64,000 nt of DNA from Gammaproteobacteria bacterium (GTDB taxonomy: Bacteria > Pseudomonadota > Gammaproteobacteria > UBA4575): positions 544,001 to 608,000 of the forward strand of contig CBDCUI010000007.1 of assembly GCA_965222615.1 (NCBI GenBank), given 5' to 3'. Position 1 is the stretch's first letter. Every line of letters begins with the position of its first letter. Positions 20,024 through 62,138 of the stretch are shown piece after piece. A program made the translations under genes and the position numbers. The notes beneath the pieces were generated by a model. That model made no database searches. It saw nothing but the letters and a program-made list of their open reading frames with translations, and had not been told where the DNA came from.

Positions 20024-21436
20024 TTACGATTGAAACAACCCCAACTCTTGAATCTTTCTGGTTAAGGTATTTCTGCCCCAACCTAAAAGTTTAGCGGCTT
20101 CTTGGCGTTTGCCTCCCGTCTTGCGCATGGCTGCTTTGATCATCACTGCTTCAAACAAAGGGGTTGCTCGATCCAGAATACCGTCCTCACCTTTAGACAA
20201 CTCATGTTCTGCCCATTCATTTAATAAACTTTGCCAATCCGATGTTTCTTCAGTAGACATCTCGTCTTTAAGCATTTCTGCTGGCAAGTCTTGCATGCGA
20301 ATTTCATTACTGGATGCCATTACTGTTAACCAACGGCATACATTTTCTAACTGGCGAACGTTGCCTGGCCATTCTAATGCACTTAGATACTCTACAACTT
20401 CTGCAGTGAGTTTTTTTGGCTCTGCCGCTAACTCCTGTGCAGAACTTTTCATAAAGTGTTTTAACAGAATAGGAATATCTTCTTTACGTTCACTCAAAGT
20501 AGGCAGGTGAATTCGAATTACGTTTAGACGATGAAATAAATCTTCACGAAATTTTCCACTTTTAACCCTTGCTTCCAAATTTTGATGTGTAGCCGCAATA
20601 ATGCGCACATCGGCCTTGATCGGCTCATGCCCACCCACACGATAAAAATGTCCATCCGACAACACACGTAGTAAACGTGTTTGTAAATCTGCAGGCATAT
20701 CTCCAATTTCATCTAAAAATAATGTGCCTTGATGGGCTTGTTCAAAGCGCCCCTTGCGCTGCGTCTGTGCTCCTGTAAATGCGCCTTTTTCATGCCCGAA
20801 CAATTCGGATTCTAATAAGTCACGAGGAATCGCCGCCATATTCAATGCAATAAATGGTCCTTGGGCACATGGGCTGTGTTCATGCAGTGCCTGTGCGACT
20901 AGTTCTTTTCCCGTTCCTGATGCACCATTGATAAGTACTGTGATATTTGAATTCGATAATCTGCCAATGGCACGAAACACTTCTTGCATGGCAGGCGATT
21001 CACCAATGATTTTTGGTAGCTCTTGAGTAAGTACATTGTCTGTTTCGGTACTTTTGGCTTCGCTCTCATCGGCAGCCAAGCAAGCCCGCTTGGTGAGTTC
21101 CACGGCTTCATCTACATCAAATGGTTTTGGCAAATATTCAAACGCACCTTTTTGATAAGCGCCGACTGCACTTTGTAAATCAGAGTGCGCAGTCATAATA
21201 ATAATGGGTAAGCTTGGGTAATCTGTTTTAATACGATCAAGAAATTCTAATCCATCGATACCCGGCATACGCACATCGGTAAGAATTGCCGATGGTGTTT
21301 GTTGTTCTAATTCACGTATCGCGATACTAGCGGATTCAAAAGTAGTAACCGGTATTTCTGCTTTTTGAAACGCGCGCTCTAAGACCCAGCGCATCGCTTG
21401 ATCATCATCTATTACCCAAACATTCGTACAATTCAT
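20024..21436 (-). CDS. ntrC: nitrogen regulation response regulator NtrC
   Basis: REC domain, GASGTGKE, GAFTGA, WPGNVRQLEN, HTH LGWGRNTLTRK. Confidence 0.97.
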   Translation of the reverse strand: MNCTNVWVIDDDQAMRWVLERAFQKAEIPVTTFESASIAIRELEQQTPSAILTDVRMPGIDGLEFLDRIKTDYPSLPIIIMTAHSDLQSAVGAYQKGAFEYLPKPFDVDEAVELTKRACLAADESEAKSTETDNVLTQELPKIIGESPAMQEVFRAIGRLSNSNITVLINGASGTGKELVAQALHEHSPCAQGPFIALNMAAIPRDLLESELFGHEKGAFTGAQTQRKGRFEQAHQGTLFLDEIGDMPADLQTRLLRVLSDGHFYRVGGHEPIKADVRIIAATHQNLEARVKSGKFREDLFHRLNVIRIHLPTLSERKEDIPILLKHFMKSSAQELAAEPKKLTAEVVEYLSALEWPGNVRQLENVCRWLTVMASSNEIRMQDLPAEMLKDEMSTEETSDWQSLLNEWAEHELSKGEDGILDRATPLFEAVMIKAAMRKTGGKRQEAAKLLGWGRNTLTRKIQELGLFQS

Positions 21437-23579: not shown

Positions 23580-24989
23580 TTAGCAGCTGTAGTACATATC
23601 AAACTCAATCGGATGGGTAGACATGCGTAAGGCAGTGACTTCATCCATCTTTAAATCGATATAGCCATCAATGCAGTCATCTGAGAATACACCACCAGCT
23701 TTAAGAAAGTCGCGATCGTTATCCAGTGCTTCCAATGCTTGATCGAGTGAAGCACAAACCGTTGGAATTTTTGCTTCTTCTTCAGGCGGCAGATCATACA
23801 GATCTTTGTCAATTGCTGGGCCTGGATCAATCTGATTTTGAATCCCATCTAACCCCGCCATTAACATCGCAGCAAACGTCAGGTATGGATTGCCCGTAGG
23901 ATCACCAAAACGAACCTCGATCCTGCGTCCTTTTGGATTACTCTCATAGGGAATACGAATGGATGCCGAGCGATTGCGCGCAGAATATGCCAGCATTACC
24001 GGCGCTTCAAAACCTGGAACCAGTCGTTTGTAGCTATTGGTACTAGCATTAGAGAATGCATTGATTGCACGCGCATGTTTAATAATGCCGCCGATATAAA
24101 ACATGGCCGTTTGCGAAAGATTACCGTATAGGTCCCCTGCAAATAAATTATCACCATCTTTGACTAAAGACTGATGTACATGCATGCCACTGCCATTGTC
24201 ACCAACGATAGGTTTGGGCATAAACGTAGCGGTTTTACCATAGTTGTGCGCAACATTGAGTACGACATATTTTAAAATTTGGTTCCAGTCTGCACGCTTA
24301 GTCAGGGTGTTATAAAGAGTACCAATTTCGCATTGTCCGGCTGTGCCCACCTCGTGGTGATGTACCTCAACTGTCACACCCATTTCTTCTAATACCTGGC
24401 ACATGGCCGAACGCAAATCTTGTAATGAATCCACTGGAGGCACTGGAAAATAACCGCCTTTAACGCCTGGGCGATGTCCAATATTGCCTTCTTCAAATCC
24501 CTTGTTTGAATTCCAAGCCGATTCATCCGAGTCAATGGCATAGGAAGCACTGGACATTTCATTCAACCATTTGATGTCGTCAAACACGAAAAACTCAGGC
24601 TCAGGGCCAAAGTTAGCGGTGTCGGCAATGCCTGTTGAGCGCAAATAGGCCTCAGCCCGTTTTGCTACCGAACGAGGGTCACGACCGTAACCTTCCATAG
24701 TAGAAGGTTCAAGAATATCGCAGCGTAGAATGAGTGTGGGGTCACTGAAAAACGGATCTATTACCGCCGTGCTTGGATCCGGCATTAATATCATGTCGGA
24801 CTCATTAATTCCTTTCCAACCTGCAATAGAAGAGCCATCAAACATTTTGCCTTTTTCAAAAATATCCTCTTCGATGACTGTAGCAGGTACAGAGACATGT
24901 TGTTCTTTACCTCGTGTATCAGTAAATCGAAAATCAACGAATTTAACATCGTTGTCACTCATCATCTTCATTACATCGCTCGCGGACAT
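23580..24989 (-). CDS. glnA: glutamine synthetase type I
   Basis: [27 protein letters not shown], adenylylation site [10 protein letters not shown]. Confidence 0.99.
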
Positions 24990-25073: not shown

Positions 25074-25212
25074 AGCACATTACGTGCCAGTAACATTGGA
25101 TGCACTTTATTGAGGCCAGGGCGGCATTATACGCGGCTTGCAGGCGATAGAAAGATCAATAAAGTAGGTTATTTGCACCAGGATAGTGCTTTATAAGCAC
25201 CAGAACAGTGCT
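25074..25212 (-). promoter_or_regulatory. glnA sigma54 promoter with two NtrC boxes
   Basis: Minus TGGCACGTAATGTGCT (25089-25074); TGCACCAGGATAGTGCT (25174-25190); AGCACCAGAACAGTGCT (25196-25212). Confidence 0.85.
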
Positions 25213-25566
25213 TGTTGTTTGGAATTATTCTGCAGCTCTATAACACAAACGCCAAACTTACACGTTGAGCTTTAGTGAACAATGGAACCCTTGTTCATGG
25301 ATTTTTCCTACACCTCGACTTAGTCAAACATCGAGGACATAAACGCAAATCAATACAAGACTGGAGCATTAACTGCTGAAGAAATTGAACTTAAAAAAGT
25401 AGATATACATCACATCGGCAATGCCGAAATTTGTCACCAAAGGCCAAATTCTGGGGACAAAATTGGTCCAATTTGCGACTAAGGGTGTTTGTTAGCAAAT
25501 GCTAATACACACTTAACCTACCCTATGTCAGTAAGTTAATTACACTACTTCAAGTCGCCAAAAAGC

Positions 25567-25582
25567 TGGCATAGCCCTTGCT
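25567..25582 (+). promoter_or_regulatory. sigma54 -24/-12 promoter
   Basis: TGGCATAGCCCTTGCT (GG-N10-GC), immediately before the GGA-rich tract. Confidence 0.75.
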
Positions 25583-25592
25583 CAAATAGCTA

Positions 25593-26030
25593 GTAATAGG
25601 GACGTTTTTATTTGCCAGGGATTGGCGAAACTATTTTAGACAAGGAGGTCAACATGGTCGGCAACACGGACGTACTCACAACATTATATGTTGTATGGAT
25701 CGCCGCTAGTGTAGCAGCGCTGGCTTGGGCCTATCGCGACACAGTGAAACAAAAACTTTGTGGCGTAAAAAAAGGCGCTTAAACACTAACAAGGATTCAT
25801 GGTGATAAGTGTTGAGCTTATCACGATGTGTAAGGATACGGACTTGTATGCAAGTGATACGGATATCTACTTTGCAAATCAAGTCACCATATTTAAGGAA
25901 TTTGCTAATGGTATGGATACCATGGCAAGCAAGGAAGCAACTGAATAGCTCATGCATCAGGAGAGCTTTTTACTTTAAGTCTTAGGGATGAGAGCTGCGT
26001 GACAGGGACGTCAACTCGCAGCTTCTTCAT
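25593..26030 (+). ncRNA. CsrB/Rsm-like CsrA-sequestering RNA
   Basis: About 15 GGA motifs, mostly ANGGA and many in short stem-loops (GCCAGGGATTGGC, GACAAGGAGGTC, GATACGGATATC, ATGGTATGGATACCAT, TGACAGGGACGTCA); 3' end uncertain. Confidence 0.75.
25654..25782 (+). CDS. 42-aa single-TM small protein inside the CsrB-like RNA
   Basis: RBS AAGGAGGT (25642-25649); MVGNTDVLTTLYVVWIAASVAALAWAYRDTVKQKLCGVKKGA; hydrophobic span followed by a basic tail. Confidence 0.6.
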   Translation: MVGNTDVLTTLYVVWIAASVAALAWAYRDTVKQKLCGVKKGA

Positions 26031-26114
26031 TCAAACTTCAATATATTCATTCATATGCTGGTCGCAGGACGGACGCATCGCTATACTCACGCTGCGTCAT
26101 TTGCCAGCAAAGAC

Positions 26115-27026
26115 ATGCCAAAGCCTCGATCAACACAAACTCAGATATCTTTTCAAGATCTAGTGCATAAACTTGAACAGTTTTGGGCTGCTCAGGGCTG
26201 TGTAATTGAACAACCGTATGACTTGGAAATGGGTGCAGCAACGTTTCATCCCGCCACATTTTTACGGGCTCTTGGACCAGAGCCTTGGCATGCTGCTTAT
26301 CCACAACCTTGTCGTCGCCCGACCGATGGACGTTATGGAGACAATCCAAATCGCTTGCAGCGTTACTTTCAGTTTCAGGTAATTTTAAAACCCTCACCAG
26401 ATAATATTCAGGATCTCTACTTAGAATCACTAATCAAATTGAATATTGATCCTCTGGTTCACGATATCCGTTTTGTCGAGGATAACTGGGAATCTCCAAC
26501 CTTAGGAGCATGGGGACTAGGCTGGGAAGTTTGGTTGGACGGCATGGAAATCTCTCAATTTACTTACTTTCAACAAGTGGGGGGATTAGATTGTAATCCA
26601 GTCAGTGGAGAAATTACCTATGGACTAGAACGTATCGCCATGTATTTACAAAACAAGGACAGCGTTTACGATTTAATTTGGACACAGCGGCAAGGTAAAG
26701 ACATAAGCTACGGAGAAATTTATCAACAAAATGAAAAAGAACAATCCGCCTATAATTTTGAACATGCCGATACAGAATTTTTATTCGCATCTTTTGATGC
26801 TCACGAAAAAGAATGCAATCAGCTTGTTGAGCTAGAACTTCCTATTGCAGCTTATGACCATGTATTAAAATGTTCACATGCATTCAATTTATTAGATGCG
26901 CGACAGGTGATTTCCGTAACGGAACGACAACAATATATTTTACGAATCCGTCGTTTAGCACAAGCCGTTGCAACAGGTTATTTCGAAAGCCGTGAAAACA
27001 TAAGCTTTCCTTTACTCAACAAATAA
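26115..27026 (+). CDS. glyQ: glycyl-tRNA synthetase alpha subunit
   Basis: [31 protein letters not shown]; start taken at ATG 26115 (ORF track starts at 26055). Confidence 0.97.
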
Positions 27027-62045: not shown

Positions 62046-62138
62046 CTATCTGGCAATCCCGCTGTCTTAGAATCCTTGCTTCCGTAGACCGGTAATTTTG
62101 CGCCCCTATCTTTCAATAGGTTTGCCTTTTTTCAGTAG
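62046..62138 (-). ncRNA. c-di-GMP-I (GEMM) riboswitch
   Basis: GGCAAACCTATT-GAAA-GATAGGGGCGCAAAATTACCGGTCTAC..GACAGCGGGATTGCCAG; P2 GNRA loop, P3 receptor region, G20 present. Confidence 0.88.

Follow-up and report, generated by a model that had tools for sequence, protein, structure and literature searches.

The RNAs closest in design to the one described here are CsrB and CsrC of Enterobacteria and RsmX, RsmY and RsmZ of Pseudomonas and Legionella, CsrA sponges of a kind that passages of two published accounts regard as non-coding (PMC10339803, PMC12612679). The locus in question lies between glnA and glyQ in a 64,000-nucleotide (nt) stretch of DNA, hereafter the window, from a gammaproteobacterium of the UBA4575 lineage (assembly GCA_965222615.1, contig CBDCUI010000007.1, positions 544,001 to 608,000 of the forward strand), and combines a GGA-rich, CsrB-like RNA with an open reading frame (ORF) for a predicted membrane protein of 42 amino acids (aa). 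Comparison of the locus across 56 genomes of the family makes it fairly probable that the two belong to a sigma-54-driven dual-function RNA, at once a CsrA sponge and a CsrA-gated mRNA. Like the Csr and Rsm RNAs, it is intergenic, displays many GGA motifs in hairpin loops on one strand, carries a GGA in its terminal hairpin and occurs in a genome that encodes CsrA. However, those RNAs are transcribed from GacA/UvrY-dependent sigma-70 promoters, whereas here the promoter is of the sigma-54 type, an ORF is present and no covariance model is matched. The term CsrB-like describes a likeness of design and not of descent.

Several other RNAs share individual features with the locus. Spot 42 (encoding SpfP) and SgrS (encoding SgrT) also unite a small ORF and a regulatory RNA role on one transcript, and are described as binding or partly sequestering CsrA (PMC13501541, PMC12612679), but they act by base-pairing and hold few CsrA sites, whereas the present RNA would be dedicated to multi-site protein titration and its Shine-Dalgarno (SD) sequence is itself a candidate CsrA site. 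According to one of these sources, some SgrS/SgrT homologues lack the ORF (PMC12612679), a parallel to the ORF-less short form described below. The Salmonella fimAICDHF 5' untranslated region (UTR) and the Campylobacter flaA mRNA resemble the locus as coding transcripts that compete for CsrA; both belong, in the accounts cited, to abundant structural-protein messages with the sites in the 5' UTR (PMC13501541, PMC4894983). Here, by contrast, a GGA array of CsrB size lies 3' of a 42-codon ORF, and a version without the ORF exists.

With regard to the promoter, CrcZ of Pseudomonas is comparable, being a protein-sponge small RNA (sRNA) with a sigma-54 promoter and an NtrC-family activator, its transcription depending on CbrB and sigma-54. 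It is described as a sponge for Hfq/Crc (PMC13501541), but it carries A-rich Hfq motifs instead of CsrA-type GGA and has no ORF. NrsZ of Pseudomonas aeruginosa, an NtrB/C-induced sRNA encoded near the ntr genes (PMC4253122), is similar in its dependence on NtrC and sigma-54 and in its closeness to ntr genes, but it is a processed, base-pairing sRNA that is not GGA-rich and has no ORF. Searches limited to one library of open-access papers turned up neither a CsrB-type sponge that carries an ORF nor one controlled by sigma-54. One source speaks of small ORFs within RNAs that titrate proteins, with CsrA-binding sRNAs and 6S RNA as examples, as still to be found (PMC12612679), and another does so of a 'decoy/smRNA' class (PMC10339803).

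The small gene, its leader and the GGA array

The first-pass annotation, made from the letters of the window alone, had proposed a peptide with a hydrophobic span and a positively charged tail, translated from an SD that forms the loop of a CsrA-type hairpin with the ATG 4 nt later, the whole lying within one RNA; the sequence and the comparisons reported in this section bear out the peptide and the SD hairpin, and the architecture fits a single RNA. The ORF occupies positions 25654-25782 on the plus strand, including the stop codon TAA (25780-25782), and is translated into 42 aa. Its length by itself is unremarkable, and it is conservation that sets it beyond chance. A peptide search of the whole family recovered the ORF, intact and without internal stops, in 20 of the 56 genomes, from five genera: both genomes of g1 (including the source genome), the single genomes of g2, g6 and g9, and all 15 of g7. 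The same search found no ORF in g3 (0/13), g8 (0/16), g5 (0/3), g4 (0/1), g10 (0/2) or g11 (0/1). A DNA search with the region matched 9 of 41 relatives; in the most distant copy (L030) the similarity of the ORF went undetected by DNA search, yet the peptide is 63% identical. The 20 loci with the ORF are referred to below as the long form.

All 20 copies are 39-43 aa long and start at the same Met, and 11 columns of their alignment are invariant. The ratio of nonsynonymous to synonymous substitution rates (dN/dS), named as a check in the first-pass annotation, indicates purifying selection: among the 166 pairs whose dS is finite, the Nei-Gojobori value is 0.15 at the median and never exceeds 0.46. 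Over codons 2-38, the first, second and third codon positions are variable at 22, 14 and 34 of 37 sites, and the corresponding ratio of proportions (pN/pS) is 0.29 (Fisher p = 3.5e-11) for seven non-overlapping pairs, which take in 14 of the 20 sequences. Frame 0 is open at all 20 loci, frames 1 and 2 at none and one of them, respectively. By these patterns, the small ORF is almost certainly a real gene under purifying selection.

For the product, a single membrane span is predicted. The best 19-residue Kyte-Doolittle window scores 1.92 (residues 7-25), the net charge is -1 over residues 1-8 and +4 over residues 28-42, and the AlphaFold2 model built on the 20-sequence alignment is one continuous helix from residue 2 to residue 39, with a mean predicted local distance difference test (pLDDT) score of 80.2 that reaches 96 for residues 11-20. 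The positive-inside rule, applied to the -1 N-terminus and the +4 C-terminal tail, predicts a single-pass inner-membrane protein with N-out/C-in topology. T9, Y12, W15, S19, W25, Y27 and R28 are among the invariant residues, and an invariant Ala/Ser-rich face (A18, S19, A22 and A26) suggests that the helix packs against itself or a partner. A Pfam profile search with the peptide returned no family, and NCBIfam gave FtsL alone, at a non-significant level (12.5 bits where the cut-off is 50; E 0.089). Against 1.84 billion representatives, a profile search yielded three real matches of 42-53 aa; a fourth HMMER match, to a 348-aa protein aligned in eight short stretches, was rejected as a low-complexity artefact. 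An index of 5.8 billion proteins held nine predicted relatives, all unnamed, and a search of the Atlas gave nothing useful (best score 0.84). The peptide is an orphan family of small membrane proteins, mostly overlooked by gene callers.

Translation of the ORF would be served by the SD sequence AAGGAGGT (25642-25649), which lies within the hairpin GAC-AAGGAG-GTC (25639-25650, plus strand), 4 nt 5' of the ATG at 25654, and doubles as a GGA motif and as the candidate second CsrA site. The SD hairpin is conserved, as a near-invariant block of the 20-locus alignment: the sequence ANGGAGGTC is retained at 19 loci and reads AAGGAGCTC at the remaining one (L029). The candidate first site is a leader hairpin (25611-25629, plus strand) with AGGGA (25617-25621) in its loop, unpaired in the minimum-free-energy (MFE) fold; the form GC-tCAGGAtG-aGC is kept in most of the 20 loci. 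This AGGGA and the AAGGAG of the SD (25642-25647) are 25 nt apart, and both are conserved. Two GGA sites in a leader are the classical layout for a translation block by a CsrA dimer, and the arrangement predicted here, a GGA over the SD and an upstream GGA within bridging distance, is that of a CsrA-repressed mRNA. Two side observations concern the leader. Many g7 genomes (L015-L025) have ATGGAGGTC as their SD and thereby gain an in-frame ATG upstream (MEVIM...), which lacks an SD of its own and is probably not used. In the scan the leader hairpin, with ACTATTTTAG following it, was classed as terminator-like; it could be a CsrA-sensitive attenuator placed before the ORF.

The GGA-rich 3' part extends from 25783 to 26023 on the plus strand, holds 10 GGA in 241 nt and is presumed to be the CsrA-titrating module. 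Its first GGA lies 9 nt past the stop codon in the source genome and 9-12 nt past it across the 20 loci; at the same distance stands a conserved AAGGATTCAT, followed by a run of GGA hairpins of variable length. Between 25598 and 26073 (476 nt) the motif ANGGA occurs 15 times on the plus strand and never on the minus strand; at the rate of the window as a whole (331 matches, counting both strands of the 64 kb), about 1.2 would be expected. In the 3.1-Mb genome this is the densest 400-nt window for ANGGA on either strand, with 13 motifs where the 15,474 windows average 1.09. Second and third come windows with 11 and 9 motifs, which were considered as a second genomic sponge and set aside, as they fall inside ORFs of 318 and 166 codons; the locus is the sole non-coding ANGGA cluster of such density found in the genome. 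Across the 20 loci each predicted RNA carries 13-17 GGA, of which the leader and the ORF account for 1-4 apiece and the stretch from the end of the ORF up to the terminal hairpin for 8-13, while the opposite strand from the ORF to glyQ has 0-3.

Most of these motifs are predicted to be accessible. Of the 295 GGA in the 20 RNAs, 196 are unpaired in the MFE fold and 145 are within hairpin loops, and the mean probability of being unpaired is 0.69 at GGA as against 0.40 for all positions. The RNA folds more stably than shuffled sequences (z = -4.0), and RNAalifold places GGA-loop hairpins in the last 120 nt, with double changes in 3 of 16 pairs. Several of the motifs read ACAAGGAUGU within a short hairpin, which we take to be the consensus found for CsrA by systematic evolution of ligands by exponential enrichment (SELEX). 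A single csrA (92 bits) is present in the source genome, and csrA was found in 52 of the 56 family genomes, in all 11 genera; as an aside, one g3 genome (G012) has five csrA matches, one of them with an internal TGA, and no other family genome has more than one. The case for CsrA binding is one of motif density and predicted structure, and the array is probably a CsrA-binding module. In a search of Rfam, four weak matches (E 0.18-5.8: SpR20, a snoRNA, MIAT and Ocean-VII) were dismissed as chance, the SpR20 match being the sigma-54 promoter itself.

The order of elements is the same at all 20 loci: promoter, leader GGA hairpin, SD hairpin, ORF, 8-13 GGA and terminal GGA hairpin. The last of these is a two-tier structure, AGCTGCG-[GAC-AGGGAC-GTC]-CGCAGCT, followed by TCTTCATTC (25993-26032, plus strand), and is the likely 3' end. 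It is strictly conserved at the 20 loci as CTTAGGGA-GAG-GCTGCG-GACAnGGAyGTC-...-GCAGC, its pairs being either invariant or covarying. The 32-nt terminal motif CTTAGGGANGAGNGCTGCGNGACANGGAYGTC occurs without mismatch, once each, in exactly those 20 of the 56 genomes that bear the peptide, a strict co-occurrence of gene and RNA end. In genus g7 a canonical terminator, AAAGGCAAGC...GCTTGCCTTTTTT, lies 3' of the terminal hairpin. When the window and two closed relatives were scanned for consensus patterns, the plus strand showed no sigma-70-like promoter, nor was a terminator predicted to separate the ORF from the GGA part; a conserved promoter hidden in the ORF is unlikely, because synonymous sites are nearly saturated. 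A single transcript of about 430 nt (approximately 25592-26025) may be inferred here, and of 420-499 nt in the relatives; the shared promoter, the common order and the 3' motif fit such a unit, and the ORF and the GGA array probably share one primary transcript.

On the left of the RNA stands glnA (23580-24989, minus strand) and on the right glyQ (ATG at 26115, plus strand), preceded by a -10-like element, GCTATACTC (26080-26088, plus strand), whose TATACT block is invariant at the 20 loci and presumably marks the promoter of the next unit. The same block stands 5' of glyQ in genera without the RNA.

Promoter and candidate activators

The RNA is preceded by a promoter of the sigma-54 type, TGGCATAGCCCTTGCT (25567-25582, plus strand), with GG at -24 and GC at -12, from which transcription would start at about 25592-25594. 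The sequence TGGCA-N6-CTTGCTC (25567-25584) is invariant or nearly so at all 20 long-form loci, each with one match to the promoter pattern, 63-78 nt 5' of the ATG, and the same element is found at 12 of 12 loci of the ORF-less short form. Its spacing fits TGGCAC-N5-TTGCW, which we take to be the sigma-54 -24/-12 consensus. The source genome contains rpoN (237 bits) and six sigma-54 activators, namely NtrC, a PilR-like protein, a pair resembling FlrA and FlrC, an NtrX-like protein and a 503-aa orphan. With these genes present, the element is a putative sigma-54-dependent promoter.

Conserved blocks are found farther upstream. UAS1, TTTGTCACCA (25430-25439), and UAS2, the near-palindrome GACAAAATTGGTC (25456-25468), are candidate sites (upstream activating sequences) for an enhancer-binding protein. 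UAS1 is conserved in the 20-locus alignment and retained in the short form, while UAS2, a conserved block of the 20 loci at about -111, is within two mismatches of GACAAANTTTGTC at 18 of them and exact at three. A further block, GTCAGTAAGTTAA (25527-25539), conserved in both the long and the short form and reading aTCAaTAgGTTAc in relatives, is an IHF-like site, an assignment made by eye against the IHF consensus. Two tandem matches to GCAC-N7-GTGC, assumed here to be the NtrC site, lie between glnA and the RNA promoter (25175-25189 and 25197-25211); in the short form, all 8 loci examined have similar tandem sites about 296 and 327 nt 5' of the sigma-54 promoter, and in every locus examined such a tandem is found about 300-390 nt upstream. 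They probably make up the enhancer of glnA, with a possible second role at the RNA promoter. A sigma-54-like promoter of glnA itself, GCACATTACGTGCCA (25075-25089, minus strand), is divergent from that of the RNA.

The GacA/UvrY box is TGTAAG-N6-CTTACA. The palindrome TTAGCAAATGCTAA (25491-25504; TGTTAGCAAATGCTAATA at 25490-25507) was considered as such a box or as an activator site and rejected: it has three mismatches, a frequency expected by chance (33 such matches in the window, 38 expected), and it is not conserved in a sister species of the same genus. The best score for the GacA/UvrY model in the genome is 178 bits against a cut-off of 280, and none exceeds the cut-off; the gene concerned is paired with a UhpB/NarX-type kinase and does not adjoin uvrC. 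Given the sigma-54 promoter, the sub-cut-off GacA/UvrY score and the chance-level box, the RNA is not wired like CsrB or RsmZ.

Among the six activators, the FlrA-like and FlrC-like proteins were excluded, since they are absent from two closed RNA-bearing genomes (G006 and G014), as was the 503-aa orphan, which has no orthologue in G041; the NtrX-like protein is present with and without the RNA and is uninformative. NtrC is encoded downstream of glnA (20027-21436, minus strand) and scores 730.7 bits on TIGR01818 against an equivalog cut-off of 558.6. The PilR-like regulator belongs to a pilS-pilR-pilin operon, in which pilS encodes six transmembrane segments. Its orthologues (67-100% identity) are found in 19 of 20 long-form and 8 of 12 short-form genomes, that is in 27 of the 32 with the RNA, and in none of the 24 others, where 'others' means genomes without the RNA by the queries used, at least two of which (G023 and G005) hold degenerate or different GGA clusters at the locus. 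Such co-occurrence is weak evidence, as the genomes are related and many of those without the RNA are small. PilR is missing from G054 and G015, both 100% complete. In G015, a short-form genome, rpoN is present and the only activator found is NtrC, whose gene lies 4 kb from the RNA; the promoter, if it works there, would have to be driven by NtrC. As a separate observation, the PilR orthologue of G006 (G006:C1:901819-902517) matches residues 1-234 only, at 85% identity, inside a 606-codon frame, and may be a fusion or a rearrangement.

The exact palindrome GACAAANTTTGTC, from which UAS2 of the source genome is one mismatch away, occurs twice in that genome. One copy is in the pilR-pilA spacer; the other (G000:C8:205630, position 631 of L128) is inside a 229-codon ORF. 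The element 5' of pilA is exact in the source genome and has one mismatch in G041, but within one mismatch it was not found upstream of pilA in five of seven relatives. PilR sites are given in one source as TGT-N11-AGA with GTCT elements (PMC6058289), to which the UAS2 palindrome is only loosely similar. NtrC is the most economical candidate and has, in our judgement, slightly better than an even chance of being the activator; PilR is the second candidate and rather unlikely to be it. NtrC is accordingly ranked first, and PilR may contribute an added input in the long-form clade.

One further regulatory element of the window, remote from the RNA, is a cyclic di-GMP-I riboswitch aptamer at 62049-62136 on the minus strand (76.8 bits against a gathering score of 35).

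The ORF-less short form and the competing explanations

A covariance model (R1) built on the 3' 120 nt of the long-form RNA scores 89-127 bits only in the 20 ORF-bearing genomes. Elsewhere it reaches 18-24 bits (E 0.05-0.9), too weak to be relied on alone, although some of these matches coincide with the short form as confirmed at the DNA level. One of them, in G062 (genus g8), leads to the same glnA-glyQ intergenic region, where UAS1, the IHF-like block and a TGGCA-N6-TTGC promoter are followed directly by a GGA-rich RNA without the peptide ORF. Used as a DNA query, this region recovered the body of the RNA, 78-87% identical, in the single g11 genome and in 11 of 16 g8 genomes; G062, from which the query came, is one of the 11 and matches at 100%. 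In these 12 genomes the short-form RNAs are about 180-290 nt long with 6-12 GGA, and no conserved ORF was found at their loci: frames, starts and lengths differ, and none of the products is hydrophobic. Promoter and GGA module are thus present in 32 of the 56 genomes, and the ORF in 20 of these 32. The intergenic regions of g3, g4 and g10 contain no such GGA cluster, and the genera without the RNA retain the glnA-glyQ synteny.

Because the ORF-less form stands behind the same promoter at the same locus, the GGA module would have a function of its own, as a sponge, and its distribution argues that a coding module was added to, or lost from, an existing sponge. The expectation that the ORF is conserved wherever the RNA is found therefore holds for all 20 long-form loci and fails for the shorter homologue of 12 genomes; the objection that a non-conserved ORF would raise is softened and not borne out, since the long form always has the ORF and the short form always lacks it. 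The label CsrB-like, also taken from the first-pass annotation, is justified by the density of GGA and their position in loops, but without an Rfam match and with a sigma-54 promoter in place of a GacA/UvrY-dependent one, it is apt as an analogy only.

Several further clusters were seen in the family. In G023 (g8; locus L072) the region 5' of glyQ contains homologous CTCAAGCTCAGGG... and AAGACATGGATGTCTT, with several GGA reading GGG; no -24/-12 match was found there, a PilR orthologue is absent from the genome, and the locus escaped the DNA search with the short form; it looks like a decayed copy of the short RNA. In G005 (g5; L073) five GGA, including a CGACAAGGATGTCG hairpin, lie within about 70 nt, some 250-330 nt 5' of glyQ; no recognisable sigma-54 consensus was found at this locus, and the cluster may be a third form of the RNA. 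Three g8 genomes (G020, G023 and G063; L087, L088 and L090) have a small intergenic candidate with three GGA, TTTAAGGAAGAT...TTGACAAGGATGTCAA, located 3' of a gene for a Met/Gly/Pro/Asn-rich repeat protein, which may be an RsmX-like RNA.

The existence of the short form bears directly on the explanations that compete with a dual-function RNA. One of them, offered already as the alternative at first pass, is that of an ordinary CsrA-regulated small-protein mRNA whose GGA-rich 3' UTR acts in cis only and titrates no measurable amount of CsrA. CsrA targets typically have such a two-site leader, the coding status of the ORF is clear, no Rfam model of Csr or Rsm RNAs is matched, and mRNAs with several CsrA sites are on record (the fimA 5' UTR, PMC13501541; flaA, PMC4894983). 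However, a module that stands behind the same promoter without the ORF in 12 genomes cannot serve the ORF alone; its 10-13 sites, at the highest density in the genome, go far beyond the needs of control in cis, and the genome yielded no other comparably dense non-coding cluster to take the part of the sponge. A purely cis-acting array is therefore improbable in our estimate. The locus could also produce two RNAs, the sponge either having its own start in or just past the ORF or being cut from the 3' UTR by RNase E. sRNAs derived from 3' UTRs are common, and the short form indicates that the sponge can stand alone, but the scans described above predicted no plus-strand sigma-70-like promoter, and in an ORF where 34 of 37 third positions vary, there is no sign of a conserved embedded promoter. 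The sole conserved promoter is 5' of the ORF, in the same place relative to the GGA module as in the short form, and even a processed sponge would depend on it; this explanation, too, we think unlikely to hold.

Two more explanations were given very little weight. It is conceivable that the act of translation matters, in that an SD blocked by CsrA would lead to Rho-dependent termination or decay before the sponge is reached, which would make a feedback switch. With a CsrA-type site as its SD, an ORF followed by the sponge without a gap and a terminator-like leader hairpin, the locus would suit such a switch, whereas 11 invariant residues and a dN/dS of 0.15 imply that the peptide itself is functional; the two ideas are not exclusive, but translation as the point of the ORF is most improbable. 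Similarly, the GGA-rich RNA might bind a partner other than CsrA or be a structural or regulatory leader of glyQS, as its constant position 5' of glyQS and the weak terminator of the source genome would allow. Against this, a conserved -10-like element lies between it and glyQ, where g7 also has a strong terminator; the genera that lack the RNA keep both the synteny and the same element upstream of glyQ, neither a T-box nor any other Rfam leader was matched at the RNA locus, and the ACAAGGAUGU-type motifs in hairpin loops correspond to the CsrA SELEX consensus. Either variant would surprise us greatly.

The dual-function reading is preferred to all of these, but a number of observations weigh against it or against parts of it. 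The 20 ORF-bearing genomes are related, and counts based on them overstate the independent support. No Csr or Rsm family of Rfam was matched at the gathering score, nor at E<=10 between 25000 and 26200, and 99 of the 295 GGA are partly paired in the MFE folds. As for the transcript, the terminator-like leader hairpin might attenuate transcription, RNase processing could separate the two halves, and the U-tract of the source genome is weak and was not called by the terminator scan, which makes read-through into glyQS possible. With respect to the activator, a PilR orthologue is missing in 4 of 12 short-form and 1 of 20 long-form genomes, genomes that lack the RNA have NtrC as well, and neither UAS1 nor UAS2 resembles the tandem GCAC-N7-GTGC sites.

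A proposed sponge that may gate its own message

Taken as a dual-function RNA, the locus can be given the following mechanism. A sigma-54 enhancer-binding protein of the NtrC family, acting through the upstream sites and an IHF-like bend, would activate the single transcript of about 430 nt. Its 5' third would encode the 42-aa single-pass inner-membrane protein, and its 3' two-thirds, with about 10 GGA mostly in hairpin loops, would titrate the single CsrA of the cell in the fashion of CsrB or RsmZ, the array binding several CsrA dimers. On the leader, a CsrA dimer held by the two sites, one of which covers the SD, would block ribosome binding. The peptide would be made only once transcription has been induced and free CsrA has been lowered by the molecule's own sponge and by those of its sister molecules; it would then insert into the inner membrane as a thresholded output of sponge saturation.

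The earlier remark that no protein-coding CsrB is known has to be softened, given that the RNAs encoding SpfP and SgrT touch CsrA, but neither of them is a multi-GGA sponge. Whether the locus represents the first sponge of the CsrB class to serve as an mRNA too, with the Csr system rewired from GacS/GacA to a sigma-54 activator and its saturation reported by a membrane peptide, is a proposal we make tentatively, giving it somewhat less than an even chance. The locus is nevertheless a concrete, conserved candidate for the predicted but undescribed class of coding sponges, and the ORF-bearing and ORF-less forms behind the same promoter offer a natural comparison. As a circuit, a sponge whose own message is a CsrA target would give a protein output with a built-in threshold. 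If the proposal is right, the Csr network could be driven by sigma-54 and an NtrC-family activator in place of GacA/UvrY, so that nitrogen or surface status would set CsrA activity; a membrane sensor or transporter could be the target of feedback by the peptide, and the ORF-less sister form would represent the gain or loss of a coding module on an existing sponge.

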